Part shown: positions 8,046 to 28,350 of the stretch, piece by piece
How positions within the stretch are numbered: the first letter of the stretch is position 1
Layout: each line of letters starts with the position of its first letter
Notes under the pieces: generated by a model
The model's database searches: none
Told to the model about the DNA's origin: nothing
The model's input: the letters and a program-made list of their open reading frames with translations, nothing else
Translations under genes and position numbers: made by a program
Source of the DNA: a virus
Direction: 5' to 3' (one strand)
Virus record (IMG/VR): IMGVR_UViG_3300042453_004886
Span: 96,001 to 160,000 of that record
DNA: 64,000 nt

Positions 8046-8411
8046 GACGTCATCTTGCCCCCAAATTTATTTTGAACCCTGGTTTTTATATACTGCCCTT
8101 AAATATTCTAGGATATTCTAGATATTCTTGTCTATAAAATTTATTGAAATAAAATCTAGATTTTCTGTATGCTGAAAATTTTTTAGCTATAAATTTCAGA
8201 TTACTTTATTTGAAAAATTCATTAGAAAACTTGCGGGATATCAATATAGGAAAATCTATATTCTAAACAGCGAAAGTAGAGCTGGATGGATGGGGTTCTA
8301 TATGGTCCCCCGGACACCCCCCTACACCCTACAAGGGTTTAGGGTATCGGTGTTCGTTCTGGACCATAGAGCCACACCTGTGCGTGTGGCCATGCTGCAT
8401 AGGAGGAAACC

Positions 8412-8915
8412 ATGCAGTTCAAGAAGAGCAAGCCCGTCAAGGGCAAGAAGCCCGTCGTCGCCGTGCCCGCCGCCAAGCCCCGCAAGGGGCTTCTGGCCCG
8501 GGTCGCGGAGGCCCTTGGCTTCGGCGCTCAGGCCCCGGTCCGCGACAGCGAGCTGGCCCAGTCCAGAATCTCCCGGGTTCTCCTCGACAACGCCCTCCGG
8601 GGCGAGCGCGAGTTCTCCACGGAGCTGATCAATCGGAGTCGCAAGACTCTGGAAGATCAGATCCGGGCGGTCCGGGCGGCGGGGGACTTCCGGGCCCCCA
8701 AGGCCGAGGCCCAGAACGTCGCTCCCGCTCCCGTCGTCGCCGCCGCTCCTGTCGCCGCCCGGATCTGGGGTGTTTTCAACACCCTTGACCGGGCCCGGCT
8801 GCGGGCGTGGTCCAAAGCTTGGGTCCAGGCCCAGGCCGAGGCCCAGGCCCAGGCCCAGGCCCAGCCCGTCGCCACCCGGGCGCGGGATTCCCGGGGGCGG
8901 TTCGTGAAGGCGTAA
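8412..8915 (+). CDS. Ala-rich basic early protein, paralog A (C-terminal RDxRGRF motif)
   Basis: AGGAGG Shine-Dalgarno; Lys-rich N-terminus; ends RARDSRGRFVKA; highly similar to 9143-9640. Confidence 0.8.
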   Translation: MQFKKSKPVKGKKPVVAVPAAKPRKGLLARVAEALGFGAQAPVRDSELAQSRISRVLLDNALRGEREFSTELINRSRKTLEDQIRAVRAAGDFRAPKAEAQNVAPAPVVAAAPVAARIWGVFNTLDRARLRAWSKAWVQAQAEAQAQAQAQPVATRARDSRGRFVKA

Positions 8916-9015
8916 GCCTCACGACCGGCCCAAACTCCCCATGGGCCTTGGTAACCCATGGGGACGCGACAGGTTTAGTAGTCTCATCCTATTAGAAAAA
9001 CTACTTTTCTTTTTC

Positions 9016-9072
9016 CTTTTCAGAGGGGGTCAGCTTTGCTGACCCCCTTTAAAAAGAGCGACTGGTGCGTAC
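9016..9072 (+). promoter_or_regulatory. Hairpin-repeat element copy 1 (putative phage RNAP promoter)
   Basis: AGGGGGTCAGC-TTT-GCTGACCCCCT hairpin + TTAAAAAGAGCGACTGGTGCGTAC, then an ACCCTTTT box; upstream of 9143. Confidence 0.7.
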
Positions 9073-9142
9073 TTAACGTAATAGTCAAACCCTTTTACAG
9101 AGCCACACCTGTGCGTGTGGCCACACTGCAGAGGAGAAAACC

Positions 9143-9640
9143 ATGCAGAAAAAGAAGAAGACCGTCGTCGTCGCTGTGCCCGTCGCCCCCGCCGCCGAGC
9201 CCCGCAAGGGGCTGTTCGCCCGGGTCCTCGAGGCCCTCGGTTTCCGCTCGGCGCCGCTCGTGCGCGACAGCGAGCTCGACCAGCCCAGGCTGTGCCGGAT
9301 GCTCCTTGACAACGCCCTCCGGGGCGAGCGGATGGTGTCGGAGGAGATGCTCAACCGGGGTCGTAAGACCCTGGAGCAGCAGATCCAGGCGGTCAGGGCG
9401 GCTGGGGACTTCCGGGCCCCCGTCGCCACGCCCGTCGCCGTCGCTCCCGTCGCCGTCGCTCCCGCCGCCGCTCCCGCCCGGGTCTGGGGTGTCTTGAACA
9501 CCCTGGATAAGGCACGGCTTCGGGCCTGGTCCCGGGCTTGGTCCGAGGCCCAGGCCGAGGCCCAGCCCGTGGCCGAGCCCGTGGCCGAGCCCGTCGCCAC
9601 CCGGGCCCGGGATGCCCGGGGCCGGTTCGTGAAGGCGTAA
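9143..9640 (+). CDS. Ala-rich basic early protein, paralog B
   Basis: GAGGAG SD; ends RARDARGRFVKA; tandem duplicate of 8412-8915, with shared leader and trailer. Confidence 0.8.
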   Translation: MQKKKKTVVVAVPVAPAAEPRKGLFARVLEALGFRSAPLVRDSELDQPRLCRMLLDNALRGERMVSEEMLNRGRKTLEQQIQAVRAAGDFRAPVATPVAVAPVAVAPAAAPARVWGVLNTLDKARLRAWSRAWSEAQAEAQPVAEPVAEPVATRARDARGRFVKA

Positions 9641-9740
9641 GCCTCACGACCGGCAACAGATCCCCATGGGCCTTGGTAACCCATGGGGACGCGTAGAGGT
9701 TTAGTAGTCTCATCCTATTAGAAAAACTACTTTTCTTTTC

Positions 9741-9797
9741 CTTTTTAGAGGGGGTCAGCTTTGCTGACCCCCTTTAAAAAGAGCGACTGGTGCTTAC
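9741..9797 (+). promoter_or_regulatory. Hairpin-repeat element copy 2
   Basis: Same hairpin as copy 1 + TTTAAAAAGAGCGACTGGTGCTTAC. Confidence 0.7.
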
Positions 9798-9855
9798 TGG
9801 AAGTAACAGTCTAACCCTTTTGCGGCCATTTTAATCACGAAAGGAGGTGATAAGT

Positions 9856-10011
9856 ATGCGGATGAGCATGGAAGAGAAGTACGTTCGTAGGCGCCAGAAC
9901 CTGGCGCTGTTCGTTCTTCTCGTCCTGTTCCTCGTCGCTGGCGCGATGGAGAACCCCATGGATCGGTTTTCCTTGGGGTCCTCCACGCCCAGCAGCGTGG
10001 AGCAGGACTAA
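9856..10011 (+). CDS. 51-aa small membrane protein (not in ORF track)
   Basis: AAGGAGGTGA SD; MRMSMEEKYVRRRQNLALFVLLVLFLVAGAMENP..., with one hydrophobic helix. Confidence 0.65.
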   Translation: MRMSMEEKYVRRRQNLALFVLLVLFLVAGAMENPMDRFSLGSSTPSSVEQD

Positions 10012-10020
10012 TTGACTTCC

Positions 10021-10052
10021 TACTCGGCGCTAGCGCCGCAATGCGCTGAGTA
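10021..10052 (+). repeat. Branched hairpin element copy A
   Basis: TACTCGGCGCTAGCGCCGCAATGCGCTGAGTA; near-identical at 12820-12851 and 17333-17364. Confidence 0.8.
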
Positions 10053-10056
10053 GGCT

Positions 10057-10117
10057 CTTTTTGAGAGGGTAGTAGCTTCGGCTGCTGCCCTCTTTAAAAA
10101 GAGGGATCGGTGCTTAC
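10057..10117 (+). promoter_or_regulatory. Hairpin-repeat element copy 3
   Basis: GAGAGGGTAGTAGC-TTCG-GCTGCTGCCCTCT + TTAAAAAGAGGGATCGGTGCTTAC. Confidence 0.7.
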
Positions 10118-10215
10118 CCCTTTCTAAGGTCTTACCAGGCCTTGCTGTCGCACATTCGTCAGAAATCCCTTTCCCCCCTTTCAGGGGGGATTTTGCCATG
10201 AAAGGAGAAACTACC

Positions 10216-11649
10216 ATGGCAAGCTCAATTCGCGACGCGTTCCTCCCCCTCATTCCGGAGCTGAAGCTCCGGCAGGAGGCGCGGAGGGAAGCCCTCCGCG
10301 CGGACCGCCGGCAGGCCCGGGCAGAGGCCCGAGAGGCCGGCAAGGCCAAGGAGGCGCTCCGGGCGGCTAAGCGGTCCGAGCGCCGCGCCGCCCGCCAGGT
10401 GGCCGCCCATGAGCGCCGCGAGGCCCTCAAGGCGGCCTTTGCAAAGGCCGCCGAGGGCCGCCCCAAGTGGGTCCAGGTCGCCTCCCGGGTGCTACTCATT
10501 CACCCGGACGAGGTCGCTAGACGGCCTCGAAAGGCCGTCCTGGGAGCGCTTCCCACCTGGGCGCTCGTGGACCTGTACTGCCCAGACCCCTTCTGGGAAG
10601 GGGTTATCTGGGAAAACCTCTTCCACGAGGGGGAGGAGCTTATTTCCCGAGAGTTCCTGGAGAAGATCCTCCGGGGCACTTCTTGGAAAAAGCTCCAAGA
10701 GGCTTTTTCCAGATGGTGCCAGCTCGAAAACAGGCCCCCGGAGTGGGAGCCCTACGCGGCGTGGAAGTTCTTTATCTCCGGTGTTTACACGGGGGGCAAG
10801 AAGTTCTTCCCGCTAGCGGGAAGGGTCAGCCACATCCAGGGCATCCTGGAGCACGGCCCAGCGCCGGAAACCCTGTCGGAGGAGGACCTGGATGCCTACG
10901 TCCGGCATCCTGGGGAGTTCAGGCTGAGTGAGCTCCTGGAGAGCGCCGAGGATCGGAAGAACCTCGCGGTTCTCCAAGAGTACCTGGAGCGCCAGCGGGA
11001 GACGTATCTCCCGGAGGAGTTCCGGGAGATCACTGCCAATCAGATCCTCAGCAGGTGGAAGACGCACAAAGACGTGCGCTTCCGCCTGGAAGGGCAGGAG
11101 TGGAGCTCTCCCGACGGGAAGATGGCGGCCCGGTTCTTGCCCAGGACCGACATCAGGGGGCTGCTGGCCGGTGACATCACCGACTGCTGCCAGCACCCTA
11201 TCGGGGCAGGGTCCGAGGCTGCCTGGGACGCGGTCAGGCAGCCCAGCACGGGCAACCTGGCCTTCTTCCGGAAGGGCCGGATTGTGGCATTTACCTGGGT
11301 GTGGGAAGCCCAGGACGGGAGCATGGTGCTTGACTCGATCGAGTACCTGAGCTCCCGCTACATGCCAGAGGTGGCTCAGGCACTTGCTGCTTTTGCAAAG
11401 CAGCTGAGGTGTGAAGGAGTCTCCACCTTTTGGGTTGGGGGCTACTCTGAAGCAGAGCTGGCCTCCCAAGTCCGGGTCCTGGCGGGATTGCTAGGCAGTC
11501 CTCGGTGGGTAAAGGCTTCCCAAGAGGGGGCCTCCCTGAATGGGGAAACTCTCCAGGGCCCCAACCTGGTCCCTTCCGGGGAATTGCCAAAGCCCGTCTT
11601 TTGGATGGGCTACTCGGACCTGCACTACAACATAGTCAGGTTCGATTGA
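10216..11649 (+). CDS. PcfJ-like domain protein (GNAT-like fold)
   Basis: C-terminal GDITDCCQHPIG...AFTWVW...MVLDSIE pattern resembles phage PcfJ-like proteins. The N-terminus is an Ala/Arg/Glu coiled region. Start chosen at the ATG after the AAGGAG SD (ORF track start 10198). Confidence 0.5.
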   Translation: MASSIRDAFLPLIPELKLRQEARREALRADRRQARAEAREAGKAKEALRAAKRSERRAARQVAAHERREALKAAFAKAAEGRPKWVQVASRVLLIHPDEVARRPRKAVLGALPTWALVDLYCPDPFWEGVIWENLFHEGEELISREFLEKILRGTSWKKLQEAFSRWCQLENRPPEWEPYAAWKFFISGVYTGGKKFFPLAGRVSHIQGILEHGPAPETLSEEDLDAYVRHPGEFRLSELLESAEDRKNLAVLQEYLERQRETYLPEEFREITANQILSRWKTHKDVRFRLEGQEWSSPDGKMAARFLPRTDIRGLLAGDITDCCQHPIGAGSEAAWDAVRQPSTGNLAFFRKGRIVAFTWVWEAQDGSMVLDSIEYLSSRYMPEVAQALAAFAKQLRCEGVSTFWVGGYSEAELASQVRVLAGLLGSPRWVKASQEGASLNGETLQGPNLVPSGELPKPVFWMGYSDLHYNIVRFD

Positions 11650-11692
11650 TGGGCTGGAGTTTGGTAGTACCTCCATCAATAAAAACTACCAC

Positions 11693-11758
11693 CTTTTTTA
11701 GAGGGGCACACAGCTTAGGCTGTGTTGCCCCTCTTTAAAAAGAGGAACTGGTGCGTAC
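11693..11758 (+). promoter_or_regulatory. Hairpin-repeat element copy 4
   Basis: AGAGGGGCACACAGC-TTAG-GCTGTGTTGCCCCTCT + TTAAAAAGAGGAACTGGTGCGTAC. Confidence 0.7.
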
Positions 11759-11801
11759 TGGACGTATTGGTTTACCCCTTAGCTCTTGAAAGGAGCTAAA
11801 G

Positions 11802-12227
11802 GTGATCACCGTTTGCAACAAGGAAAACTACCTTATTATTGAGGACGAGGTGCTCGACCTCGTCCGAGGCCAGTACCCCGCAGGAGGGCTGGCCCAAGTC
11901 GTCGGTGCGGAGAGCTCGCACCGGGTCGTCACTCTCCGGGACTGCGGAGACCTAGTGGGCATTTGCCTGCTTGACGTCGAGGAGGCCACGGTCGACGACC
12001 TCGTCGTCAAACCCAGGTACAGAAAGTACCTGGGCGAGATGCTCGCCTCGGTCCGAGAGATCGCCGGAGAAGGGGCTTGGACGGCGTACTGCCGGGCTAA
12101 GACGTCTGCTGTCACCGTTCGGGCTATGGCCCGCAGGGGGCAGCTGAGGCTTCTCCATCTCGGAGAGCCGGAGTACGACGACTACTTTGCCGAAGAGATG
12201 GTGGAGGTAGAGTTTCAGCTACTCTAG
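11802..12227 (+). CDS. GNAT-fold acetyltransferase-like protein
   Basis: LVGICLLDVEEATVDDLVVKPRYRKY resembles GNAT motif A; AAGGAG SD, GTG start. Confidence 0.45.
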   Translation: MITVCNKENYLIIEDEVLDLVRGQYPAGGLAQVVGAESSHRVVTLRDCGDLVGICLLDVEEATVDDLVVKPRYRKYLGEMLASVREIAGEGAWTAYCRAKTSAVTVRAMARRGQLRLLHLGEPEYDDYFAEEMVEVEFQLL

Positions 12228-12254
12228 CCTCCTTCCTGAGTGACTTCCTGAAAC

Positions 12255-12320
12255 CTTTTTTAGAGGGGCACACGGCTTAGGCTGTGTTGCCCCTCTTTAA
12301 AAAGAGGGAATGGTGCGTGC
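12255..12320 (+). promoter_or_regulatory. Hairpin-repeat element copy 5
   Basis: Hairpin as in copy 4 + TTAAAAAGAGGGAATGGTGCGTGC. Confidence 0.7.
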
Positions 12321-12364
12321 ATTGGGCAGCACTTAACCCCCTTTCATGTTCAGGAAGGATCCAC

Positions 12365-12550
12365 ATGAACATGAATGCCACCCGGAGCGATGTGTTCCGG
12401 GCTGTCGTGCAGGAGAACAAAATCCTGCGCGAGCGTCTTGAGGAATGTCAGAGGTTGATCAATCTCTTTTCGGACCTCGAGACGCGCCTTGCTGAAGAAA
12501 GGGCAAGGCAAATTGAGTTTGAACGGGAGCTCTTCTGGAGCTGCCGTTAA
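12365..12550 (+). CDS. Small coiled-coil hypothetical protein
   Basis: GGAAGG SD before ATG 12365, in frame with ORF 12284-12550. Confidence 0.6.
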   Translation: MNMNATRSDVFRAVVQENKILRERLEECQRLINLFSDLETRLAEERARQIEFERELFWSCR

Positions 12551-12557
12551 AACTCAC

Positions 12558-12612
12558 CTTTTTGAGAGGGGGCAGGGATGCCCCCTCTTTAAAAAGAGGG
12601 ACCGGTGCGTAC
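12558..12612 (+). promoter_or_regulatory. Hairpin-repeat element copy 6
   Basis: GAGGGGGCA-GGGA-TGCCCCCTC + TTTAAAAAGAGGGACCGGTGCGTAC. Confidence 0.7.
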
Positions 12613-12672
12613 TGGATGCATTGGTTTACCCCTTTGTTACGCGGCCATCTCTAAAAGAAAGGAGGTGATTAC

Positions 12673-12801
12673 ATGATGGAGTCGGATTTCCTCCGGGCCG
12701 AAGCGGCCCTCGAGGAGGCGATCCTCCGGGCTGAAGAAGCTGCCGAAACGGCGGCAGCCCGGGAGGAGTGGGCCGCTGCTTTCGCGGCGGTCTGGGGTTA
12801 G
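12673..12801 (+). CDS. 42-aa acidic helical peptide, copy 1 (not in ORF track)
   Basis: AAGGAGGTGA SD; MMESDFLRAEAALEEAILRAEEAAETAAAREEWAAAFAAVWG; paralog at 17191. Confidence 0.75.
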   Translation: MMESDFLRAEAALEEAILRAEEAAETAAAREEWAAAFAAVWG

Positions 12802-12819
12802 TTTTTTCGTTTCTTTTCC

Positions 12820-12851
12820 TACTCGGCGCTAGCGCCGCAATGCGATGAGTA
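12820..12851 (+). repeat. Branched hairpin element copy B
   Basis: TACTCGGCGCTAGCGCCGCAATGCGATGAGTA. Confidence 0.8.
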
Positions 12852-12855
12852 GGCT

Positions 12856-12916
12856 CTTTTTGAGAGGGTAGTAGCTTTAGCTGCTGCCCTCTTTAAAAAG
12901 AGGGACCGGTGCGTAC
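12856..12916 (+). promoter_or_regulatory. Hairpin-repeat element copy 7
   Basis: Same type as copy 3 + GAGGGACCGGTGCGTAC. Confidence 0.7.
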
Positions 12917-13011
12917 TAGCACTAAAGGTTTCCTCCCAGAAACAAAGGAAGATGAGCTCACTCGGTGAGATCTTCCTTGCTGTCAGAGACAGCAATGTTG
13001 CGTACATAAAA

Positions 13012-13053
13012 GCGGGGTCTAACCCCTCTTTAAAAAGAGGAATTGGTGCGTAC
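13012..13053 (+). promoter_or_regulatory. Hairpin-repeat element copy 8 (short hairpin)
   Basis: GGGG-TCTAA-CCCCTCTTTAAAAAGAGGAATTGGTGCGTAC, directly upstream of RNAP-like gene 1. Confidence 0.65.
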
Positions 13054-13171
13054 ACGCATTAAATGTCTTCCTTTTTTCCCCGGATTTTTTATCGCGTAAT
13101 CCGGTGATCGCCATATACTTGGCGCCCTTTGCTCGGGGAGAGAGCGTTTTCAGCGCATGAGGAGGAAACCA

Positions 13172-16100
13172 ATGCGTATGAACAAATTGGTGAATCAAAA
13201 GCACCAAGCGCTGGCGAAGCTGGCGGTGGAGAGATTCAAGAAAGCACAGGAAGCTCCTGAGGAGAAACCTGAGCCGACTATGGATCTCATCGCTCGGGCG
13301 AACGAGAAGGCTGTTGAATACAGCCGGCTTCGTAAGCTTGCCCTTGAAGTTCTCTCTCATGAGAGCTCTGAAGAGGGCTGTGTCGAATTCGGGATCAAAC
13401 CTGAAGACGACATGGGCGTAATTCGCCGCAAAGTGGTGAACCGTTTCAAAGCGGGTAACCACTCGGTGGTCCGGGGCGAGCTCAAGACGCTGTTCCCTCG
13501 TCACGAGGAGGACATCTACGAGCCCGCCGAGGTCACCAAGCAGGATGTTGCCGACATGGCACTCCTGTTCGGCGCGGAGTGGCCCACCGACGAAGCCTTC
13601 GGCTTGTTCGGTGTTACCTTTGACTGGGACAATGCCGGAAGGCTTGTTGTCAACGGTAAGAAGGCTCTGAGGAACGTCATCGCCGTTTTCGGTGGTGGTA
13701 TGCCTCACGAGCTCTTTCAATATCAGACTGCAGCTCTGGTATTGTTGGCCGCCCAAGGTGCTGCAGCCCAGGAGCGTGAGAGGTTTGCATCAAACGCAAG
13801 CCCTTACCAGGTCCAGAAAGCGCTGACGAAAGCCTTCCAGAAGGTGATCAACAGCGGGCCTGTGAACAAGGGTAGCGAACAACCGGCCTACGGGTTTGTT
13901 GATGCAACCTGTGCGCTCCGACTCAAGGAGATCGTTCGACCGATCGAAGTCCTGCTGGTAGAAGATAGCATCGTCTACCTGGAGCAGATTGATCCCATTC
14001 TTGGCAACAAGATGGTGAAAGAACTGCACCCGGACTACGGTGTGGATATCGAATCGGGTAACTACCGGCCTGCCGGTAAGATGCTCGACGAGAACCACAT
14101 CGCGGTAAGGTCGAGCGATGGGGCCAAAAGTGCCAAGCGCACCCGTATGGCCTCAGGTGAGCAACAGGAACCGGTGAATCCTGTGCTCTCTCGTGTTTCC
14201 TACAGAGGAACTCGAGCAACCGGCTCCCTGATCACCGCGTTCCTTGCGCCGTGTGCAGACCCGTTCTTGGCGGGTGGTCCTGGCGGTAGCCTTGATTTGT
14301 CGGGTGAAACCGGCGTCAAGACCAGCTACTGGGACGACGCGCTGCACAGCGGCACGAGCTTCGATATCCGTTCCGCCGAGGATAGAGAAGCCTTCCTGAA
14401 CACCCTCCCCAGCGATGGGGATGTTCTCGGCGAGACCCTTAGCGTGTTTGGCGCCCCACCTGTCAAGGTGCCTTCAGACGCTAGGGGCGTGGTCACTAAG
14501 GTGACCGCGGCCCCCGATGGAGCCTACCGCAATATGCGGTGGCAGGTGCATAGTCGTTTCAAGGAAACTTCTGTGTTCACCAAGCTCCGCGGATCAATCA
14601 AGACGATGGTCTCTGCAGGCCTAGTTGCGAAGATCCGACTCGGGGAAGGGTCCATCACCCACTTCGACATCCGCAATAGCGGACTTGCCCTGTCGGGGTG
14701 GGAAGGAGAGGATTTGTTCCTCTCAGGAGACGCATTCAAGGGAACCGGGAAAGGCAACAGCCAATTCCGGGTGGAAGTCGCCGTTGAAACGATATGGCAT
14801 TTCCTTCCTTTGGAAGCGGACAGTCTCCTATCCTCTCTGCTCCCGGAGGCGCTCTACAAGGGCGGAATCGTGGAGTATGACGAGGCGTTCGATCTCGACG
14901 GGGCTTACGAGCCTCTGATGAGGGAATTCGAGCGTCGTTTTGCCAAAGTCGCTGACCTTGGTAAGACAGTCGAACTGCCTGAAGTCTGGGACAAGTGGTT
15001 GCTTGAGCATGCCACGAAGGTCGGGCTGAAGGTGGAAGACCTCGTCTGGAGCCCCTTCCAAAAGGAGGGAGTCACTGGCAAGCAGGTGGCTTTCAACATT
15101 GGTAAGGGTATCACGGGGCTCCCAGAGTACCGCGTATTTGTACTTTACGACGATGGCTGCAAGGCTGTTGTGAGGACCACGACTGCGTTTAAAACCGCGA
15201 TGTTGGTCCGTGTAGAGTACGGAAGCGTCAGGAAGGCAGCCAGCAAGGCCCAACTTATGCTCGAAGTCGCTTACGGCGCTAAGGCAATGGGTCTTGACGA
15301 GCTCGCTGAGTTCCTCGAGTACGAGGGGCGTTCCAAAGCGCGTGCGGTGCTCAAGCTCATCCGTTCGGTTGGTCCCAAGGCAGCAATTGCTGAGGGAAGT
15401 CGAGTAATCGATGCCGCCGAAGCAACGGATGAGGACCTGCTTGAGATCGAAACCCTGCTCGAGAGTGATCTCGAAGCATGGCCGGAAGATCTTGTTATCG
15501 AATGCAAGTTCGAGGACAAGAACGGAAAGCTGTGGAGAGTTGTCTTGGCTCACCACTTGGTTTCGGTCATCTCAAAGGAGAACCCCCAGAGAAAGGCAAT
15601 CTCTGGCATTCTCGATGCGATCCTTAACAAAGATCGTACAAGGTTCGAGAATAACATCCGGGTCCTTGAAGGTGGGCTGTCTAACATGGTTTCTTTGGCC
15701 AATAAGAAACTGTGGAAGAAGGTTCACGCAGGTCCAAATGCTGCACACGGTAAGCGGGTCATCGTACTCGCCTCTCACGTGGGCTGCCATGAGGAACTGC
15801 TCGTCAATCCGTTCGGCAAAAATGCTAGACATCTAGCCAAGCAGAACGGTTGCGAGATCAAGGAACTGGATGGGCGGTGGGTAGTCGTCCAGCGAGCTCC
15901 ACAAAGCCTGCCGATTTTGCTGAGAATCGTGTTAACCACGGCTATCGGTAAGAACGTGTTCGGCATGACGGACCTTGCTGCCTCGATCGACAACGGCGAT
16001 CACGATGGAGACACTATCCTCGTGACGGTCATCCCTGACCAAATCGCCGAAGTGACCCTGCAGAAGTACAACGCTCGCAGAAAGTCGCTGTCGATTCACG

Positions 16101-16975
16101 AGGGTACGCACAAGGCGGATCCGTATCACTGGATCGAGCAAAACACGTTTGTGGATGGAAAACACAACGTCTGGGCTCGTCCTTCCGTGGTTACGGTTGA
16201 AAACTTGCGCAAGTACGACGAGGCGGGCATCCGGGCATATACACTTGAAATGCCTTCGGATGCCAACAGGGCACACCTCGCCCTTGCCATCGCTTCGATG
16301 CAGCTTCCCACAGGCTGGGGGGAGTTCAGCATCGAGGAGGCCAACGGCCTGATGTTCAGCGTCTACGAGCCGGAGCTTGGTGGTTTTAACCCCAAGTTCG
16401 CTGCTGCTCATGCCGCAATTGCCAATCTTGGCAATGAACGTCTCAAGGAGTTCCTCCAAGCTACGGATAAGCTCGACCTTCGGGAAGACTTCGCCAAGGC
16501 TTGGCTTCGGTCCGCAGATGCCAAAAGCTGGTGTCAGAAGACCGTGAGTTACGCAAAGTTTAACAGCAATGGAAAGCTTTCCGTATGGAACCTCACCCAG
16601 GCCACGGTCCCTCAGGAGCAGAGGCTCGCAGCCGTACCCAGGTTAGTTGCTTTTGCAATGAAACTCCTGTCAGTTGGGAACGTCAACAACCAGTTGATGC
16701 TCAATCTGGACAAGGTCGTTGTCGAGAGCATGGTCAAGGAGACCAAGGGCGAAAACCGGCGTTACTACCCGGTTCTAGTCAAGGGTAAGCCAGAAGTGGT
16801 CGAGCTGAAAAGCGTGATCAAGAAACTGGCAGCAAAGGGAGTCCCGGGCGCTCAGCGCTTGGAGATCTGGATGGACCACATCCTCCCTGAGTTCTCCAAG
16901 TACCACCCCAAGGAGTACCATGCCGCAATGGCCTTCAACGGGGACTACGATTGTTCCGATTCGGAGGAAGAATAG
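13172..16975 (+). CDS. Single-chain two-barrel RNA-polymerase-like protein, paralog 1
   Basis: VVVQRAP...[14 protein letters not shown] (nt 15998-16012) matches beta-prime NRAP...[29 protein letters not shown] resembles [28 protein letters not shown] supplies a DPBB-B-type lysine pair. GAGGAGG SD before ATG 13172. Confidence 0.72.
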   Translation: [1267 protein letters not shown]

Positions 16976-17070
16976 CAAACTGATCGGGAACTTGGCGGCT
17001 TTGTCTTAAGAACGCACAGAAAGTGCAAAAGCAAAGCTGCTAAGTTACCTGATCAAGACAACTAAATAAC

Positions 17071-17132
17071 CTTTTTAACAGAGGGGGCTGGTTCATTCCA
17101 GTACCCCTCTTTAAAAAGAGGGACCGGTGCGT
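17071..17132 (+). promoter_or_regulatory. Hairpin-repeat element copy 9
   Basis: GAGGGG(G)CTGG-TTCATT-CCAG(TA)CCCCTC + TTTAAAAAGAGGGACCGGTGCGT. Confidence 0.7.
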
Positions 17133-17190
17133 CGGTGCGTCCAAGGTGCAACCCTTTTGCGGCCACTTAATCACGAAAGGAGGTGATTAC

Positions 17191-17310
17191 ATGATGGAAG
17201 ACTTCCTCGCGGAGGCCATCCTCCGGGCTGAAGAAGCTGCCGAAACGGCAGCAGCCCGGGAGGAGTGGGCAGCTGCTTTTGAAGCCCTGGACCAGTGGGT
17301 CTGGGGCTAG
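17191..17310 (+). CDS. 39-aa acidic helical peptide, copy 2 (not in ORF track)
   Basis: AAGGAGGTGA SD; MMEDFLAEAILRAEEAAETAAAREEWAAAFEALDQWVWG. Confidence 0.75.
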   Translation: MMEDFLAEAILRAEEAAETAAAREEWAAAFEALDQWVWG

Positions 17311-17332
17311 TTTCTTGTTTGTTTTCCTTTCC

Positions 17333-20500: not shown

Positions 20501-21127
20501 AACAACGTCCTTGGGCTTCTCTTCGAAGTCTGGGAGGCGGAGCTTGGCGGGTACGATCCGAAGTTTGCTGATGCCCACAAGGCAATGCAGATCGAGGATC
20601 CCATCGAGCGCGAGGAGGAGTTCCTCAAGGCATGCGCCAAATTGAACTTCACGGAGGAGTTCGGGCGTGCTTGGCTTTCCATCTCCGCGGCGAAAACCTC
20701 AACGATGAAAGCCCTTCAGAAAGGCTATCTCATTGGGGAGCACATGACGTTCCGGCACGTCATCAGCCAGAGCACTCCTGCCGACGAACGATCGATGTCC
20801 GCATGGATGGCGATCGCGTTCGCGATGAAGCTGCTTTCGAGCGGTGAAATCAACAACGAACTCATGCTCAACCTCGATATTGCCCGAGTTGAGAATTGGG
20901 TGGTTGTCGGTAAGGACCGGAAAGGCAAAGACATCCAGCGCCCCACCGGAGAAAGCTACGACCTTGCACAAGGTATCAGCTTCCTCTGGAAGCAGGGGCA
21001 CCCTGCGGCTACTCGGCTGCAGCACTGGATGATGGCGGTTCTTCCGAGGCTGCGCGAGTTGAGCAAGGAGAAATCCTACAGGGCTTTCAGCCCGGACATG
21101 CTCAACAGCTCATCTGAGGAAGACTAG
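17549..21127 (+). CDS. Single-chain two-barrel RNA-polymerase-like protein, paralog 2 (DFDGE variant)
   Basis: YVLLLRAP...SSRGDFDGEGVVVVP (nt 20183-20197); GKLRGLLK; colinear similarity to 13172-16975 along its length. Start chosen at the ATG after AAAGGTAGG (ORF track start 17441). Confidence 0.7.
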   Translation: MMSEYLKLRESVASALLGDTNEHGLPPVEAGFEAFSRQTAKALKSLGMAFQGATLVEEEFNRLFGNLGDHGWELTPVDQMDLVVLSVMLGAQFQGWETISFDKEILSFDQAGNLVVGGRKAIGPVLLVQSVRDLGNPVVVNTAVLSKYQAAAYVMLLGARRGLSSALKACDRFLIDPEQGFIDADRKRLLDGSLRVVEVELLGNLLEPVEKTDRLLVNSVVRELLPNYRVRASKDSYAPFGKLAPVPGFLDVPTVDEAKGVKRADAADVTQCRPVNPELCALSYQGTRGTGVLLDVLLAPCGLATLTGFGDGTAAVLSREFGDKAAFHDPFVVRATSFAVKSQEDCEKFMATIPKVGEELVGSKLSVHGAPTKLLPLGKKLVTGVSQATEDPTYGNIRWEVRGEAIDRSGDGKLRGLLKAMTVFPAVKIHHGHGFPWKELTRNELVIALPGNVRTKFDLLAGMACWKGSGKGSGKNRVETAVQTFKRHLTHDEFETHMGEVLPAEGFDADGTPRYDETVDVGGGYSQLVQSFEEHYAVPLRIGRLIAKDLWSRLLDAYLRQLGKRKADLEWEPTPIGGQAASLEIMKGITGKPEVLTFVVLDDGRTALVQQTTAFTTAMVLKVEHTSVARSVSIAHMMLDAAIAFKALGHEKTARYLEEQSRTPAKGVERLFDLVNGHIPVSHRTVGLHPGKSRLLPEGTAMLKAIIESDLETWPADLCLSAGLNEQEFCVDRTVLATMHAESPQRGAVKGLIEAALGGDLTRFQNNFRTLRAALHKMLSAANKGFFKKLMSGPRGSHAKRVPITSSGAAHDELQIHPKGQVWRNLETILGEKMVDGQYVLLLRAPMKTPSLLRVKSSFSVGVNKFAVSEKTASSSRGDFDGEGVVVVPLSQEAVEELLSANYSAWELSLKAHSIKTGGEFHWEDANLLIDGKHNVWGKAKRVSIQSSIALDEGTIRAYRMEMPGDANKATMALMLAAMGKYQLNNVLGLLFEVWEAELGGYDPKFADAHKAMQIEDPIEREEEFLKACAKLNFTEEFGRAWLSISAAKTSTMKALQKGYLIGEHMTFRHVISQSTPADERSMSAWMAIAFAMKLLSSGEINNELMLNLDIARVENWVVVGKDRKGKDIQRPTGESYDLAQGISFLWKQGHPAATRLQHWMMAVLPRLRELSKEKSYRAFSPDMLNSSSEED

Positions 21128-21217
21128 CTGTGTCACAAATAAACTCGAGCTATCCCACGAACGCACACGAAGTGCAAGGGATGCTCGAGTTTTGCTGTGA
21201 TTCGATCAACTAAATAA

Positions 21218-21281
21218 CTTTTTAACAGGGGGGCTTGGTTCATTCCAATGCCCCTCTTTAAAAAGGGTAACTGGTGCGTAC
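21218..21281 (+). promoter_or_regulatory. Hairpin-repeat element copy 11
   Basis: Hairpin like copy 9 + TTTAAAAAGGGTAACTGGTGCGTAC, then an ACCCCT box. Confidence 0.65.
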
Positions 21282-22251: not shown

Positions 22252-22778
22252 CTTCCACGGCGTCAATTCCCCTCTCCCGGGGAATTGGTGGAGGGGTAGC
22301 TTCGCTACCCCCGCCTGGCGGCGGCCAAGCGTGGGCTTGGGTCGGTTCAGTCCGGCCTTCCCGCGTCTCGGCTGCCACTGAAGCCGGACGCCCCGGCCCG
22401 GCCCCCCTTCGGGGGGCCGGGCCGGGGGCGTTTTGTTGCGTACACTATACAAGGGTGTGCAACAAAGCGGAAAATTTGAGGGGAAAGACCTCTGGTAACA
22501 CTCACGTCACGAAAGCCAACACCATGGCAAGACGTAAGTTACCATTTGGCAACCCCTCAAACCACCTCTACCGGGTGGGGACATCCGGTAGAAACCCGTG
22601 AAAACGGGAGTTGTCCGTACCAGACAAGTTCTTGCAGGAGCTTGTCTGGGTAGCGGGTGTGGCTGCAACCACACACGGTACTACGGACCTTTGAAGCCGA
22701 GGCTCTGAGACTGATCAGCTCAGGGCCTTGGGCTTCATTGCTTTACACAAAATCAATTTTACACATAAGGAGAAACCT

Positions 22779-23105
22779 GTGTTCATTAACCTCACGCCTC
22801 ACACCATCACGGTGCTTGACCAGGACTCCGTCCTGGTCAAGGCGATCCCGCCCTCCGGGGCGGTGGCTCGCCTGGAGAAGCGGGACGGGGATGCCATCCT
22901 CGTGGATGGGATCCCCGTCAAACGTCCCCATTTCGGGGAGGTCATGAACCTCCCCGAGCCCCAGGATGGGATCTTTTTCATTGTGTCCGCCATGGTGCGG
23001 ACCAGTCCGGGGCTGCTCTCCCGAGGAGACTTGGTCTCCCCTGCGGACTTCGTCCGGGACAGCCAGGGAAACATTGTTGGCTGTCGGGCGTTCGACGCCA
23101 ACTAG
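22779..23105 (+). CDS. Conserved viral hypothetical protein (NLTPH family)
   Basis: FINLTPHTI...LPEPQDGIFFIVS...GDLVSP...RD..G.IVGC pattern recognised from many phage proteins; AAGGAG SD before GTG. Confidence 0.6.
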   Translation: MFINLTPHTITVLDQDSVLVKAIPPSGAVARLEKRDGDAILVDGIPVKRPHFGEVMNLPEPQDGIFFIVSAMVRTSPGLLSRGDLVSPADFVRDSQGNIVGCRAFDAN

Positions 23106-23159
23106 GTCAGTAAGTCAGGGCCGGGCTATAAGCCCGGCCCTCGCTCGAGAGGAGAACCC

Positions 23160-23294
23160 ATGAAAGAAGAAGAATACGCGGCCCTCCGGGACGCGGAGTT
23201 CATCTGCGCCTCGTGTGGAACAAACCACACGGGGCGTGGGGGCTTGCTCATGAAAGACGGTTGGGGGTGTGAGGACCCCTACTGTCAGTACTGA
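23160..23294 (+). CDS. 44-aa Cys-rich (Zn-ribbon-like) peptide (not in ORF track)
   Basis: GAGGAG SD; MKEEEYAALRDAEFICASCGT...GCEDPYCQY. Confidence 0.55.
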   Translation: MKEEEYAALRDAEFICASCGTNHTGRGGLLMKDGWGCEDPYCQY

Positions 23295-23575
23295 GCGAAC
23301 CAGGGCCGGGCTATAAGCCCGGCCCTCGCAACACTGCACGTGCTCGAACGGACCTTCGGTGCGTACATAACGTAGCGATCGCCACCAGCGGAGCTATATT
23401 GCGTACACCAGCTAAAGGTGTCCCTAGGACTAACCGGAGCAACGTGCAAAAAAATTGATGGGGGTAACCCCACCAAGGCCTGATTTCGCAAGAAATTAGG
23501 TGGGAACTGTCTTGGGGCTTTTCCCTCTGACATTCCCAAATGTCGTAGCCGATTCTATTCGTAAAGGAGGCCAGC

Positions 23576-24031
23576 ATGCTGGTCAAGATCCACGCTAACA
23601 TCCGAGTTTACGTCCCGGGGGAAAACGAGCTGACCATCAACGGTCAGGTCAAGAAGCCGTTTCTGGGGCTCCGGGGCCCTGGTGACATCAACGTCACGAT
23701 CTACGGCGGTACCGCCGGGGTCGAGGGTCTCGAGAAGCTCGTGAAAGAGCTGAAGAGCCACGCGCCGAAGACCGGGTACGGTTACGTGCAGGTCACGGGA
23801 GTGCGCAGGTCGGACTCGGGATTCATCGGTTTTGCGGGTGACGTCACCTGCACCGGGAGTCCTACCAACAAGATGCTGGAGTGGGCGGAAGGCCTCGATC
23901 TCGTTGCCCTGCAGAGGGACGTCGAGGAAGAGCTGAACGGGCGTTCTTCCCGTGCTCGCACCTGGGCACAGAAGAACACCAACGCCCAGCCCCGGAAGGA
24001 CGATGACAACGGAACGGCAATGCCCTTCTAG
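23576..24031 (+). CDS. Putative ssDNA-binding protein (beta-rich, C-tail DDDNGTAMPF)
   Basis: AAGGAGG SD; alternating beta-strand pattern; acidic tail ending MPF, like SSB-Ct. Confidence 0.5.
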   Translation: MLVKIHANIRVYVPGENELTINGQVKKPFLGLRGPGDINVTIYGGTAGVEGLEKLVKELKSHAPKTGYGYVQVTGVRRSDSGFIGFAGDVTCTGSPTNKMLEWAEGLDLVALQRDVEEELNGRSSRARTWAQKNTNAQPRKDDDNGTAMPF

Positions 24032-24089
24032 TCATCGTTAAATTTCAGGGGAGGACTTCGTCCTCCCCTGAAACCCCCCGGAGGTCACC

Positions 24090-24515
24090 TTGGATTTTCC
24101 CGTCTACGAGTTGGACGTTAGCCGTCCAAAATACAGAAGACGAAAGAAAACCTTAAAAAGTGTCCTCACCGCTCTGGTTGGAATATCCGTGATGTACGCC
24201 ATGGCAAGATATTTGCCTGGCGCACGTTACGGATGGGTCGAGGCGGATTACCACCAGTTCCAGGGAAACTACATGGGAACCATGTTCAAAGGAAACCGGG
24301 AATACGTGGTGATCTACAAGAACTCGGAAGTTCGCTCGTTTGAAATCAACCCAGGCATCAGCCTGAGCTTACCTCATCTGGGAGCAATGGTTGAAGTTCA
24401 CTATAACAACGAGCAATTTCCGAAAATCATGCAGGGAAGAGACCTGAAGGCAATTCATATTCCGGACCCTGCACCGGAAAACGAAGGATTGCCTACGCGT
24501 TACGGCGTATTCTAG
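24090..24515 (+). CDS. Hypothetical single-pass membrane protein
   Basis: Basic stretch followed by hydrophobic VLTALVGISVMYAM; GGAGG SD. Confidence 0.6.
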   Translation: MDFPVYELDVSRPKYRRRKKTLKSVLTALVGISVMYAMARYLPGARYGWVEADYHQFQGNYMGTMFKGNREYVVIYKNSEVRSFEINPGISLSLPHLGAMVEVHYNNEQFPKIMQGRDLKAIHIPDPAPENEGLPTRYGVF

Positions 24516-24524
24516 GAGGTTCAG

Positions 24525-25769
24525 GTGCCGATAGATATCATACCGGCACTTGGAGCCGGATCTCTTCTGGGAATGCTTGCGCTTTTCCCGGGGTTTCACT
24601 TTGCCATGGTCCTGCTTGTTGCGGGACCATGGATCCTCAACCACTTCACGCTAGCCAGTGGAATTTTGTGCATGGCAAGCGCGGTATGCGTGAGTAAATG
24701 CATGCATACCTTGGCGGTGGTGTATCACCCGGTATCGGGTAACAACATCGCCTCGGCAGATCCTGCTCAGCGCTTGGCTGCAGCGGGACAAGGCCGTTAT
24801 GCCACAGCGCTCATGGGAGACGCTGTCTGGGGCTCTGCCACAACCTTGGCGATTTTGCTAGGGGCTGTGGTGCTGTTCCAGACCTGGCTCCAGACAGACC
24901 TGATCAAGCAGGCGATCAAGCTAATTTCCAGCTTGAGCGGATTGGCAATCTTGGTCTGGATAATAGCTCTATTAGCCAGCTCCAAGAATCTGCTGGCAAC
25001 GATTTTCGTGTTCGGGAGTAGTGCAGCCCTGGGCGTCATTGCCCTGATGCACCCCGCAGTAGAGGGATCTACTCACACGATGACTCCGTTGCTGACAGGA
25101 ATGTTCGCGTTTCCAGTTCTTCTGAACACTCTCTTCGAGAAGCACTCCTCGTACCAGAGGATCGAAGTAGAGAAGCAAGACGAACTGGAGACAGATCCAG
25201 GCTTGAAACTCATCGGATTTATCACGGGTATTCTATCCGTGGGACTTCCGGGTTTGGGAACCTCAAGCTTGGTGTCCGTAAGTCAAGGCCTGACAGAATC
25301 AGATGCAGAATATCTCACCATGGCTTCCTTTGCGGAAACTACAGGTGAAATGATGGCGCTGATTCTGGGCATCCTGAGCATTGCCTCCCGTAGCTCAGAT
25401 GCAGCAATTATTCAGCAGGCCTTGCTGAAGCATACGGGAGAGTTCGCCATTCACCCGACTTTCATGTACCTGCTGCTGGGAACGATGCTCGTGTCCTGCT
25501 GGGTGGGTCTGAAACTGGTTAACGTGGTGAGCTTTCCGTACAGAGTCATGCTTAACCTCATCCCGGTGAAGCTTCAGGCTCTGATTGTGGCTTCGGCCAT
25601 GATCGGGCTGGTGTGGCATCACACGTCGATGTGGGGCATGGGGATCGTCTTGGCAGGCACCCTGATTCACCTCGGAGCTAAACAGCTCTATGTGTCGAAT
25701 CAAGTCCTGTTTGCCTGCATGGTGATCCCGATGCTGATGAACATGGCTCAATTCAACCCGTTCCGGTAA
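24525..25769 (+). CDS. Polytopic membrane protein, TctA (tripartite tricarboxylate transporter permease)-like
   Basis: About 10 hydrophobic segments; LFPGFHF and GLPGLG resemble the repeated PG-motifs of TctA-family permeases. Confidence 0.5.
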   Translation: MPIDIIPALGAGSLLGMLALFPGFHFAMVLLVAGPWILNHFTLASGILCMASAVCVSKCMHTLAVVYHPVSGNNIASADPAQRLAAAGQGRYATALMGDAVWGSATTLAILLGAVVLFQTWLQTDLIKQAIKLISSLSGLAILVWIIALLASSKNLLATIFVFGSSAALGVIALMHPAVEGSTHTMTPLLTGMFAFPVLLNTLFEKHSSYQRIEVEKQDELETDPGLKLIGFITGILSVGLPGLGTSSLVSVSQGLTESDAEYLTMASFAETTGEMMALILGILSIASRSSDAAIIQQALLKHTGEFAIHPTFMYLLLGTMLVSCWVGLKLVNVVSFPYRVMLNLIPVKLQALIVASAMIGLVWHHTSMWGMGIVLAGTLIHLGAKQLYVSNQVLFACMVIPMLMNMAQFNPFR

Positions 25770-25771
25770 AT

Positions 25772-26218
25772 TTGAGGGAAAGAGCGCATGACGTTCTTCT
25801 ATGCGAGGCGGTTATTGACTGGTCAGACCAGCAAGACACCCCACCCGACATAGGAGAGATAAGCGTGTCGACGCACTCTGACCTTCAATTCCCCAACTTC
25901 TCGAAGCTCTTAGTGGAAGCAATCGACCGCCTGAAGAAAGAAGGAGCGACTCCGCTTTCCACAATGGAGCAAGTTGTTGTGGGATTCATCACAGCAGAGG
26001 AAGACAAAGATACCAGCATCGGTGAGCGAATCGTATACGAGCTTGATTTTCTCAAGCTGCCCAAGTGGGTTGCGCTCATCACCTGGTTATCCCCGTTCGG
26101 AATCTGTTCTCATCATCCCCGAATGATTCTCCGCATAGCAAACTACCTGCTCGGTTATACCCGAAGCGAGGAAGAGCACAAGTTGCCCCGGCTCATGCGG
26201 AAAGAGTTCGGAATATAA
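25772..26218 (+). CDS. Hypothetical protein
   Basis: ORF abuts the previous gene; start uncertain. Confidence 0.5.
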   Translation: MRERAHDVLLCEAVIDWSDQQDTPPDIGEISVSTHSDLQFPNFSKLLVEAIDRLKKEGATPLSTMEQVVVGFITAEEDKDTSIGERIVYELDFLKLPKWVALITWLSPFGICSHHPRMILRIANYLLGYTRSEEEHKLPRLMRKEFGI

Positions 26219-26313
26219 CTGAATATCCCCTGGCTCCTTTGAATTAAAGGAGTCGGGGGACTTCCCCTGATCATACCCAATACCTTCCCAATACCTTTAG
26301 GAGATTAAGACCC

Positions 26314-26736
26314 ATGCGCTATACTGCTCGAATTGCCAAAGTGTCGGACTTCCCCAACACGAATTCGTTGAGCGTGATTGCCGTTCTGAAGACAGAGAAC
26401 GGACAGCTCATCGAGGACGTCTGGGTGAGCTTCTATCTCCCGTACAGCCTCGACATCTCCAACGATGTCCGGTCCCGTGTCTGCACGGAGATCGGATTCG
26501 AAGCCCAGGGTTACTCCTCTCAGCCCATCCCGGGACGTGAAGGGAACCCCACCAAGGGTCTGCAGCCGCTCCACGCCTTGGTTGGCCTGGACCGTAAAAG
26601 CATCGTCAGCATGCTCTCCCGTGAGGTTCGCCGCGGCACGGTCGTCAAGGATAAGGCCTTGGCGAGCCGCAACAAGAACCTCGTGTCGCGTGCTGCTGAA
26701 TGGCTGCAGTCGGCTGTGAAGCAGGCTGCCGAGTAA
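26314..26736 (+). CDS. Hypothetical protein
   Basis: AGGAG SD; GC3-rich codons. Confidence 0.65.
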   Translation: MRYTARIAKVSDFPNTNSLSVIAVLKTENGQLIEDVWVSFYLPYSLDISNDVRSRVCTEIGFEAQGYSSQPIPGREGNPTKGLQPLHALVGLDRKSIVSMLSREVRRGTVVKDKALASRNKNLVSRAAEWLQSAVKQAAE

Positions 26737-26793
26737 CCTAGTAAAACCCAGGGGAGGGCTTCGGCTCTCCCCAAACCTACCTAAGGAGAAACC

Positions 26794-26988
26794 ATGGGCA
26801 AGATCAATTTCCTGATCGTCAGCTGCACGCTGACGCTCATCATCAACTTCGTCAACATCCTCGCGATCACGCGGGGAGAATACGAATATGGCATTGGAAG
26901 CTGGGTTGGACTTTGCATGTCCACCATGGCCATCTGGATGGCCGGGACCTGCATCTACCAGTACAACAAAATCAAACAATCTCTGTAA
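26794..26988 (+). CDS. Small two-helix membrane protein
   Basis: AAGGAG SD; two hydrophobic segments. Confidence 0.6.
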   Translation: MGKINFLIVSCTLTLIINFVNILAITRGEYEYGIGSWVGLCMSTMAIWMAGTCIYQYNKIKQSL

Positions 26989-27014
26989 GAACAATCTCTG
27001 TAAGGAGGAAACCC

Positions 27015-27365
27015 ATGGGAACCAATGATTTGCTCCGTTCCTACATGAACGAGCAAGAAACTTACAACGCCAACCGGAAGACCCACATGCAGGTGATCGT
27101 CCAGCACCTGCGTGACAACAAAGTCCCTGAGTACAGCAGAGAGTCCTTCAAAGTGGCCCCCTGGTTCACCGGGTGGGTCTACTTCCTGAGCGAAGAGGGA
27201 GCCGTCACGGCATCCCTTTTCGAGAACGCAGAAGAAGTCCACTGGGGCAGCCTTACCACGGGAGAATGGTGCAACCGCATCGTTCTCGTCGAGGGACAGC
27301 TCTACACCTTTGGACAGTGGAGCAACCCGATGGGGCTCCCTGACGCCTTTGTCTGGAACGGATAA
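27015..27365 (+). CDS. Hypothetical protein
   Basis: AAGGAGG SD before ATG 27015. Confidence 0.65.
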   Translation: MGTNDLLRSYMNEQETYNANRKTHMQVIVQHLRDNKVPEYSRESFKVAPWFTGWVYFLSEEGAVTASLFENAEEVHWGSLTTGEWCNRIVLVEGQLYTFGQWSNPMGLPDAFVWNG

Positions 27366-27535
27366 GGTTTTCCCGAGGAGAGGTAGCCTCCTCGGGTTTA
27401 CGTGCCCCCTGAGCCTTGCAGGGCTCAGAATTGGGGAAGAGACGGGTGCAGTTGCAGCTGCACCCGACGCCACGGGCTGTTGCAGGGGGTAGGCGAAAGC
27501 CTACCCCCGCATCAGTTATCCCTTAAAGGAGACTT

Positions 27536-27757
27536 ATGAGACTCAGCGTGAACGCCCTGGAAGCTGTATGGTTCCGTTCGAACTTGCTCAAGAGCAAGAT
27601 CGATCGGCTGTACAAAACGACAGCGGACTACCCGGAGCTGGACGGATTGGTTGCGGATCTCCAGGACATGGTCCGTCGCCTGGAAATCGATACCTACACC
27701 CTCTGGCGGAACGAAGCCGCAGAGGAAGAAGAAAAGACTGGAGTGCTCAAACCATGA
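27536..27757 (+). CDS. Small helical hypothetical protein
   Basis: AAGGAG SD. Confidence 0.6.
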   Translation: MRLSVNALEAVWFRSNLLKSKIDRLYKTTADYPELDGLVADLQDMVRRLEIDTYTLWRNEAAEEEEKTGVLKP

Positions 27758-27969
27758 GTCACGAAGAAACTATGAAGGTTGCGTCCTCCCTGAGGCTGTT
27801 GACACAGCTGATCAACGAGCTGCAGGAAACTGCAGCTCAAATCCCTGATGGAAAGCTGTCCCGAGAAATCCGGGGCAGCCGTGAATTGGCGAGAGATATC
27901 CGGGGCATGCTCGGAACTCTCCGCAGAACCCCTGAAACGAGTGTCATACGCTCGATTCAGAAACTATAG
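27754..27969 (+). CDS. Small helical hypothetical protein
   Basis: ATGA overlap with the previous stop codon. Confidence 0.55.
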   Translation: MSHEETMKVASSLRLLTQLINELQETAAQIPDGKLSREIRGSRELARDIRGMLGTLRRTPETSVIRSIQKL

Positions 27970-27980
27970 AGGAGGAACCC

Positions 27981-28277
27981 ATGGAAGTCTACAAATTTCT
28001 GGAAGCAATCAAGAAAATCCAGAATGTCGAGTTCTTCCCAAAGCCCAATGGATACCAGTGGGTGGTCGGGGAGGAGCTTTCGGTGATCAGCACCGAAGGA
28101 TCTTACGGAGGACGAGAAGGCCTGCTCGAGATGACGATCTTGTCGGATTGGAGTTTCGAGCCAGCAGGCTTTCTGACGGCTGAAGAGGCAATGGAAGGCG
28201 TTTACGCTTTCCTGGATGGCAAGAACTGGAAGGCGGAGATCTTCCGGTTCCGGGACGCCAAACAAAAGCAAAGCTAA
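27981..28277 (+). CDS. Hypothetical protein
   Basis: GAGGAGG SD; SVISTEGSYGG..GLLEM motif seen in phage proteins. Confidence 0.65.
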   Translation: MEVYKFLEAIKKIQNVEFFPKPNGYQWVVGEELSVISTEGSYGGREGLLEMTILSDWSFEPAGFLTAEEAMEGVYAFLDGKNWKAEIFRFRDAKQKQS

Positions 28278-28281
28278 CACA

Positions 28282-28304
28282 GGGGCCAGGCTTAGCCTGG
28301 CCCC
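28282..28304 (+). terminator. Hairpin ending the GC-rich region
   Basis: GGGGCCAGGC-TTA-GCCTGGCCCC followed shortly by a T-run. Confidence 0.5.
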
Positions 28305-28350
28305 CGAACTTTTCCAGTCTACCTGGCTATCTTTACTTTAAATCTTGCTT

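Follow-up and report, generated by a model that had tools for sequence, protein, structure and literature searches.

In the N4-like phages (Schitoviridae) an injected virion RNA polymerase (vRNAP) uses hairpin promoters to transcribe the early genes, among whose products is the next polymerase, RNAP II. A GC-rich early block is not known from N4. In the Thermus phage P23-45 a vRNAP that is fused to the tape measure protein transcribes the pre-early genes, whose promoters are AT-rich; the next polymerase, the non-virion RNAP gp64, is itself a product of one of these genes (PMC10770324). Here we analysed a stretch of 64,000 nucleotides (the window; bases 96001-160000 of the IMG/VR virus record IMGVR_UViG_3300042453_004886), in which a GC-rich block of about 20 kb lies next to the gene for a putative giant vRNAP in an otherwise AT-rich phage genome. 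The genome is a 194,626-bp phage contig that is rated complete by CheckV and on which no end repeats were found. Our analysis makes it somewhat probable that the block is the module for pre-early or early transcription in a family of large phages with a giant virion RNAP, and that its GC content is held by selection.

The locus resembles N4 in that an inverted-repeat promoter-like element stands before the presumed early genes and in that these genes would encode the next polymerase. It differs in that the N4 polymerases are T7-like, whereas a search of this genome for the T7-type RNAP family found none; the positive control of that search also failed, so that the result is not evidence of absence. 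The likeness to P23-45 is seen in the giant virion protein with a DFDGD motif, for which presence in the virion and activity are predicted here, and in a nearby block, expressed first in P23-45 and probably also here, that encodes a second, non-virion RNAP in P23-45 and a putative one here (PMC10770324). In both phages this block has its own AT-rich promoter motif and special terminators (PMC10770324). In contrast to P23-45, the phage described here has a PLD-like domain, two RNAP-like paralogues and a compositional island in an AT-rich genome, and at E <= 1 none of the solved chains was matched in sequence, apart from a chance-level match to beta-prime. The term "GC content" is never used in the P23-45 paper (PMC10770324).

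Temporal differences in codon usage and their compensation by tRNAs are already known in phages. In Shigella phage Sf14, codon usage is reported to differ between gene groups and not in a compositional block (PMC12482277). Our phage is like the T4-type phages and Sf14 (PMC12482277) in that codons which abound in most of the genome but are scarce in the early genes are served by the phage tRNAs; it differs by a step of 16 points in GC (up to 60 points in GC content at third codon positions, GC3, in the relative L005) and by top late genes that avoid the tRNA-matched codons. Like a horizontally acquired genomic island, the block has an atypical composition and sharp edges, but it is conserved in order in distant relatives and is bounded by a promoter gap and a terminator. 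It would join two known themes, codon usage by temporal class and a relay of polymerases that starts with a vRNAP. What appears to be undescribed is a compositional block of 16-20 kb that has long been held in the early module of several lineages. Full-text searches of the literature turned up no AT-rich phage for which a conserved GC-rich early block is described, which is not proof of absence.

The original prediction, which was made from the letters of the window, had described an island of about 20 kb with G/C-ending codons in an AT-rich phage, and calculation of sliding GC and GC3 bears this out. The GC content is 57.6% at window positions 8290-28310 and 41.4% in the remainder of the genome, a difference of +7 standard deviations; the other 20-kb windows of the genome (n=135) have a mean of 0.411 (sd 0.022, maximum 0.445), and the scan revealed no second GC-rich block of this kind. 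In having a composition unlike the rest of the genome, the block is similar to a genomic island. Per kb, the GC content in the window is 0.52-0.63 within 8-28 kb and 0.35-0.47 elsewhere. Both switches are sharp (0.26 to 0.62 over 8100-8400 and 0.55 to 0.39 over 28200-28400). The 23 genes of the block, for which frames were chosen by codon-position GC, all lie on the plus strand and have a GC3 of 0.57-0.90, compared with a median of 0.41 outside. The shift sits mainly at third codon positions, and it is also present between genes (intergenic GC 53% inside and 41% outside; 82% of the block is coding). From left to right along the block GC3 declines (rho -0.56, p 0.02). The block and its flanks contain the following features, with positions in the window:

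29..7759, plus strand: putative vRNAP gene, coding for the C-terminal 2576 of 3297 amino acids; AT-rich, GC3 0.32
7760..8045, minus strand: small conserved gene of 94 amino acids between the vRNAP gene and the block
8046..8290, no strand assigned: AT-rich gap (26% GC) with sigma-70-like sites on both strands, left boundary
8290..28310, plus strand: GC-rich block with about 23 genes, mostly orphans, all on the same strand
8412..9640, plus strand: tandem paralogues (8412-8915 and 9143-9640) with repeat families D2, D6 and D7
9006..21279, plus strand: cassette in 11 copies, consisting of a GC hairpin, the inverted repeat CCCTCTTT AA AAAGAGGG and then ACCGGTGCGT
10198..12227, plus strand: two genes of 483 and 141 amino acids (10198-11649, 11802-12227) with orthologues in the blocks of the relatives L005 and L007
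13157..16975, plus strand: RNAP-like gene 1, 1272 amino acids, motif GDHDGD, matching bacterial RNAP beta-prime in Foldseek
17441..21127, plus strand: RNAP-like gene 2, 1228 amino acids, motif GDFDGE, 33% identical to gene 1
22728..28277, plus strand: small genes of the right half, with order kept in L023/L024 and L011 at 33-91% identity
28282..28304, plus strand: GC hairpin terminator, right boundary, conserved in L023
28352..28672, plus strand: five copies of the 20-nt motif GTATCTCCACTAAATAAAGG, immediately beyond the block terminator

The reading as an early module rests on three features of this layout: the block contains the only two RNAP-like genes of the genome, it has cassettes of its own, and the vRNAP gene adjoins it. 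The putative vRNAP is so called because of an LGDxDGD motif that is invariant in an alignment of four homologues; all homologues adjoin a portal gene, and a precomputed Pfam match places the PLD-like domain in this giant protein. The small reverse gene that follows (7760..8045) matched no Pfam family and has homologues at the equivalent place in L002 and L005-L008. All 11 copies of the cassette are on the plus strand inside the block, and none is present elsewhere in the genome. The blocks of relatives carry their own cassettes, in which a GC hairpin is paired with an AT-rich motif.

The two paralogues of 1272 and 1228 amino acids are probably RNAP-like, judging from the DxDGD motif and a Foldseek search with a low-confidence model. 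For gene 1 this search gave 85 matches at E <= 0.001, nearly all of them to RNAP beta-prime (E about 1e-4) and with TM-scores of about 0.1; the model covers the C-terminal 958 amino acids with a mean predicted local distance difference test score of 54, and we counted it as weak support only. A profile search against PDB sequences had its best match to beta-prime at E = 0.91, which is chance level. Homologues of gene 1 are present among protein representatives (74). Scans of IMG/VR and JGI with the RNAP protein or alignment gave no match; the vRNAP alignment did find relatives. The block and its RNAPs likewise matched none of 50,697 phage records (megablast, tblastn). In the second paralogue (17441-21127) GDFDGE replaces the metal-binding motif DxDGD, and this protein may be inactive or altered.

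Homologues of the vRNAP with 25-43% identity were found on contigs from other samples. The same arrangement is present in at least four further lineages (vRNAP 25-36% identical): an AT-rich polymerase gene comes first, and behind it lies a GC-rich block in which the order of the orthologues is kept. GC3 in L005-L007 is 0.28 for the vRNAP gene and 0.88 for the genes behind it, and in L008 the block after the vRNAP gene has 0.78. The orthologues of 10198-11649 and 11802-12227 in L005 and L007 are 36-38% identical to the genes of the window. On one IMG/VR contig (L009/L011, vRNAP 25% identical) both GC steps are present: a 16.5-kb block with 0.50-0.57 GC lies between flanks of 0.35-0.44 and contains an RNAP homologue; orthologues of 24525-25769 and 25772-26218 are also present, arranged as in the window. 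Six contigs that carry an RNAP homologue were fetched, and each of them has 56-64% GC. The block is thus not variably present as a genomic island would be, since orthologues occur in L005-L008, L009/L011 and L023.

Contigs of relatives also cross both boundaries. The left junction is crossed by L002 with about 97% DNA identity at window positions 7835-8305 (about 470 bp; L002:16400-16880), and the identity stops exactly at the start of the GC-rich DNA. The right junction is crossed by L023, which comes from another sequencing run (window 27371-29268, L023:10464-12186); on this contig the final genes of the block, the terminator and the two AT-rich genes that follow stand in unchanged order, with DNA identities of 84% and 97.7%, and the RNAP of L023 is only 27% identical to that of the window. 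As judged from these sequences, the block is neither a chimera nor a recent import.

Selection on composition is suggested because the edges of the block are those of a transcription unit, matching the promoter gap and the terminator to within about 100 bp, and because the composition is conserved across lineages with differing repeats. In addition, synonymous sites would otherwise have reached the AT level of the genome at 25-45% protein identity. With proteins this far apart, synonymous sites are saturated, and therefore the composition has probably been maintained and is not a leftover of transfer.

In the early-module reading, the block would be expressed first, from the AT-rich promoter gap after the vRNAP gene to the strong terminator, as the layout suggests. 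The injected vRNAP would start at the 11 terminator-promoter cassettes, and the two RNAPs encoded in the block would next transcribe the AT-rich remainder of the genome including the tRNA cluster. Selection would act on the base composition of the module that is used first, in a host that prefers G/C-ending codons. This preference of the host is deduced from indirect signs, namely the tRNA set, the codons of the top late genes and the 63% GC of the relative L004. As to what is selected within this reading, our leading, still tentative, candidate is a requirement of vRNAP-driven transcription for a certain template or transcript: AT-rich promoter cores would stand out in GC-rich DNA, and stable hybrids would aid a minimal polymerase. 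Translation with nothing but the tRNAs of the host is a possible but somewhat weaker candidate. Some other cause is doubtful, and it is less likely again that the block evades host proteins or defences directed at incoming DNA that is AT-rich.

Several points weigh against this interpretation. The block sits in the middle of the contig, so that its position does not support first entry into the cell. Its right third (21.3-28.3 kb) is GC-rich and has no cassette. The assignment of the two paralogues as RNAP-like rests on the motif and the Foldseek matches to the low-confidence model described above, and the reference set of highly expressed genes that is used below consists of two genes only. 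Given L004, which has 63% GC throughout and the same gene order with RNAPs that are 24-27% identical, it is also possible that the GC-rich state is ancestral and that the other parts of the genome have drifted to AT under relaxed constraint.

A narrower version would make the GC-richness a cis-acting need of the DNA that the vRNAP transcribes, with the pre-early block locked at high GC. AT-rich promoter cores would then work only as meltable spots, the minimal polymerase would need GC-rich hybrids, and the remainder of the genome would drift towards AT with the help of the phage tRNAs. We consider this version rather unlikely.

The original prediction explained the block by tRNA timing: early genes would be GC-rich because they have to be translated with host tRNAs before the phage tRNAs exist, and later genes would depend on the tRNAs of the phage. 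As this explanation would have it, the tRNA genes are clustered outside the block, 4.5-12 kb downstream of it, and comprise:

32858..40338, plus strand: whole cluster with Lys-UUU, Asn-GUU, CAU, Arg-UCU-like, Leu-UAA and Ile-UAU
32858, plus strand: tRNA Lys-UUU, found by ARAGORN and Rfam
37523-37607, plus strand: tRNA Asn-GUU, class-II-like, 85 nt, found by ARAGORN and Rfam, missing from the list of the original prediction
38372-38676, plus strand: tRNA CAU, split by a group I intron (108.7 bits)
38682-38756, plus strand: Arg-UCU-like RNA, borderline (28.5 bits, cut-off 29)
39960-40243, plus strand: tRNA Leu-UAA, read by eye, split by a weaker group I intron (35.7 bits, below the Rfam threshold)
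40248-40338, plus strand: tRNA Ile-UAU, 91 nt, found by ARAGORN only

Four of the tRNAs listed earlier (Lys-UUU, CAU, Leu-UAA and Ile-UAU) were thus recovered, while the Arg-UCU-like RNA stayed just under the cut-off. The match between these tRNAs and the codons that are rare in the block, which had been claimed as well, holds. When 61 codons are ranked by how strongly the block is depleted of them compared with the remaining genome, TTA is first, ATA second, AGA eighth and AAA fifteenth (permutation p about 0.001, or 0.025 if A-ending codons alone are considered). The tRNAs therefore read codons that are enriched in late and bulk genes relative to early genes, as expected for tRNA compensation. 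TTA, ATA and AGA are, however, the most GC-sensitive codons in any contrast of AT-rich and GC-rich genes, which makes the match partly automatic.

The dependence of the later genes on the phage tRNAs was not confirmed. The capsid gene and a gene for a structural protein of 535 amino acids (G000:C1:81302-82468, 87114-88721; both outside the window) show an extreme codon bias and are two of the top five genes outside the block in GC3. Together they have no AAA (32 AAG), no ATA, no AGA and only one TTA, so that highly expressed late genes do not use the tRNA-matched codons. In these two genes CTG occurs three times among about 110 leucine codons. The avoidance of AAA, UUA, AUA and AGA in highly expressed genes is consistent with tRNA timing to the extent that these codons seem to be poor or slow in the host, and they seem to be so even late in infection.

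The four-fold degenerate sites argue against tRNA timing as the only cause. In the two top late genes their composition is A.06, C.45, G.03, T.46, in the block A.13, C.38, G.30, T.19, in the remainder of the genome A.30, C.18, G.11, T.41, and in the vRNAP gene of L004 A.05, C.56, G.33, T.05. T-ending and C-ending codons are read by the same tRNAs. T-ending four-fold codons, for which no phage tRNA is needed, nevertheless fall from 46% in the top late genes to 19% in the block (and to 10% in L005), and G-ending codons rise tenfold in the block from the 3% of the top late genes. The codon adaptation index calculated against the top genes of the phage, a reference of two genes, is 0.34 for the block and 0.28 for the rest and thus barely exceeds the genome background, whereas structural genes reach 0.5-0.8. 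In codon use the block is like an average gene of the uniformly GC-rich L004 and unlike one that is translationally optimised. The depletion of T-ending codons, the enrichment of G-ending codons and the low adaptation index therefore point to a force that favours G+C as such. What stands of tRNA timing is the appearance of an early module and the codon match; as the whole explanation it is improbable, and avoidance of tRNA-limited codons is at most one component and not the cause.

A local neutral process without selection, either GC-biased gene conversion driven by repeats or a mutation bias specific to the region, is very unlikely. Repeats and near-identical stretches do abound in the block, among them a 54-nt pair that is 100% identical, a 75-nt pair with 95% identity and the tandem paralogues, which have the highest GC3 of the block (0.88-0.90), and mosaic exchange is evident at both boundaries. 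Against such a process, the boundaries fall within about 100 bp of the promoter gap and the terminator, the right 7 kb is poor in repeats yet GC-rich, and the pattern recurs in lineages with different repeats.

Even less credence is given to a module swap, in which a GC-rich relative, for example one of the L004 lineage, recently donated the early block and the block has not yet drifted to the composition of the genome. L004 with its uniform 63% GC and the same gene order could represent such a donor, and boundary segments are 84-98% identical to otherwise distant relatives. The RNAPs are, however, only 24-27% identical to those of L004, and since four AT-rich lineages (vRNAP 25-36% identical) all have a GC-rich block, either repeated imports or long maintenance would be needed. 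A chimeric assembly, in which a GC-rich contig was joined into an AT-rich phage, can practically be dismissed. The compositional switches are abrupt and contigs of relatives often break near the left boundary, but independent assemblies with the same gene order cross the left (L002, L005-L008) and the right (L023) junction and L009/L011 shows both switches on a single contig.

The early-module reading would make the block a natural system in which to study constraints of the first minutes of infection, namely translation with host tRNAs, the needs of an injected polymerase and host proteins that target AT-rich DNA. It also has consequences for metagenomics. Such phages fragment in assemblies at the GC step; seven of eight contigs of relatives end at the vRNAP gene or a few kb beyond. 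An AT-rich contig with the vRNAP (L003) and a GC-rich contig with the RNAP (L021) come from the same run, and it seems that assembly is interrupted by the GC step or by the repeats. GC-rich pieces are likely to be mis-binned or assigned to the wrong host by composition-based tools.

At the left edge, the segment 7835-8305 that is shared with L002 spans two thirds of the small reverse gene and the entire AT-rich gap, and the adjacent vRNAP of L002 is only 36% identical. The segment looks like a regulatory cassette that was recently exchanged or is extremely constrained. At the right edge the repeat array between the conserved parts differs, with three copies of ACTACCTACACTACTTTAAGAT in L023 and five copies of GTATCTCCACTAAATAAAGG in the window; the comparison of the sequences indicates mosaic exchange at the module edges. 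Several of the five GTATCTCCACTAAATAAAGG copies precede short palindromes, and the array could serve as promoters for genes of the next temporal class or consist of repeats of the origin type.

Among 19 island proteins scanned against Pfam and PHROGs, one PHROG family of unknown function was found and nothing else; mobility families were absent, and the flanks are the promoter gap and the terminator. A psbA gene was looked for in the genome and not found, and neither the ribonucleotide reductase nor the vRNAP gave a match when GTDB was scanned. In the protein atlas the ribonucleotide reductase lies near clusters from Gemmatimonadota, Bacillota and Methylomirabilota. The introns of the CAU and Leu-UAA tRNAs are located at classic bacterial positions, and the tRNAs Asn-GUU and Ile-UAU have long variable arms that are unusual for these anticodons.

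Two further arguments were considered and dropped. The block is overall richer in alanine, arginine and glycine, which might have been taken as proof of a pressure at the DNA level, but in the RNAP orthologues the content of Gly/Ala/Arg/Pro versus Phe/Tyr/Met/Ile/Asn/Lys does not follow the local GC, and the argument was therefore abandoned. Avoidance of restriction sites was rejected as cause of the GC-richness, with 4-mer palindromes at 0.8-1.4 observed/expected in the block. The only strongly avoided 6-mers are GTGCAC and CGGCCG, which are avoided in the whole genome and not specifically in the block. For GTGCAC, 9.9 occurrences are expected in the AT-rich 174 kb and none is present, and the block has one where 4.1 are expected; CGGCCG is also rare, and the scarcity of these two 6-mers may reflect avoidance of restriction sites.

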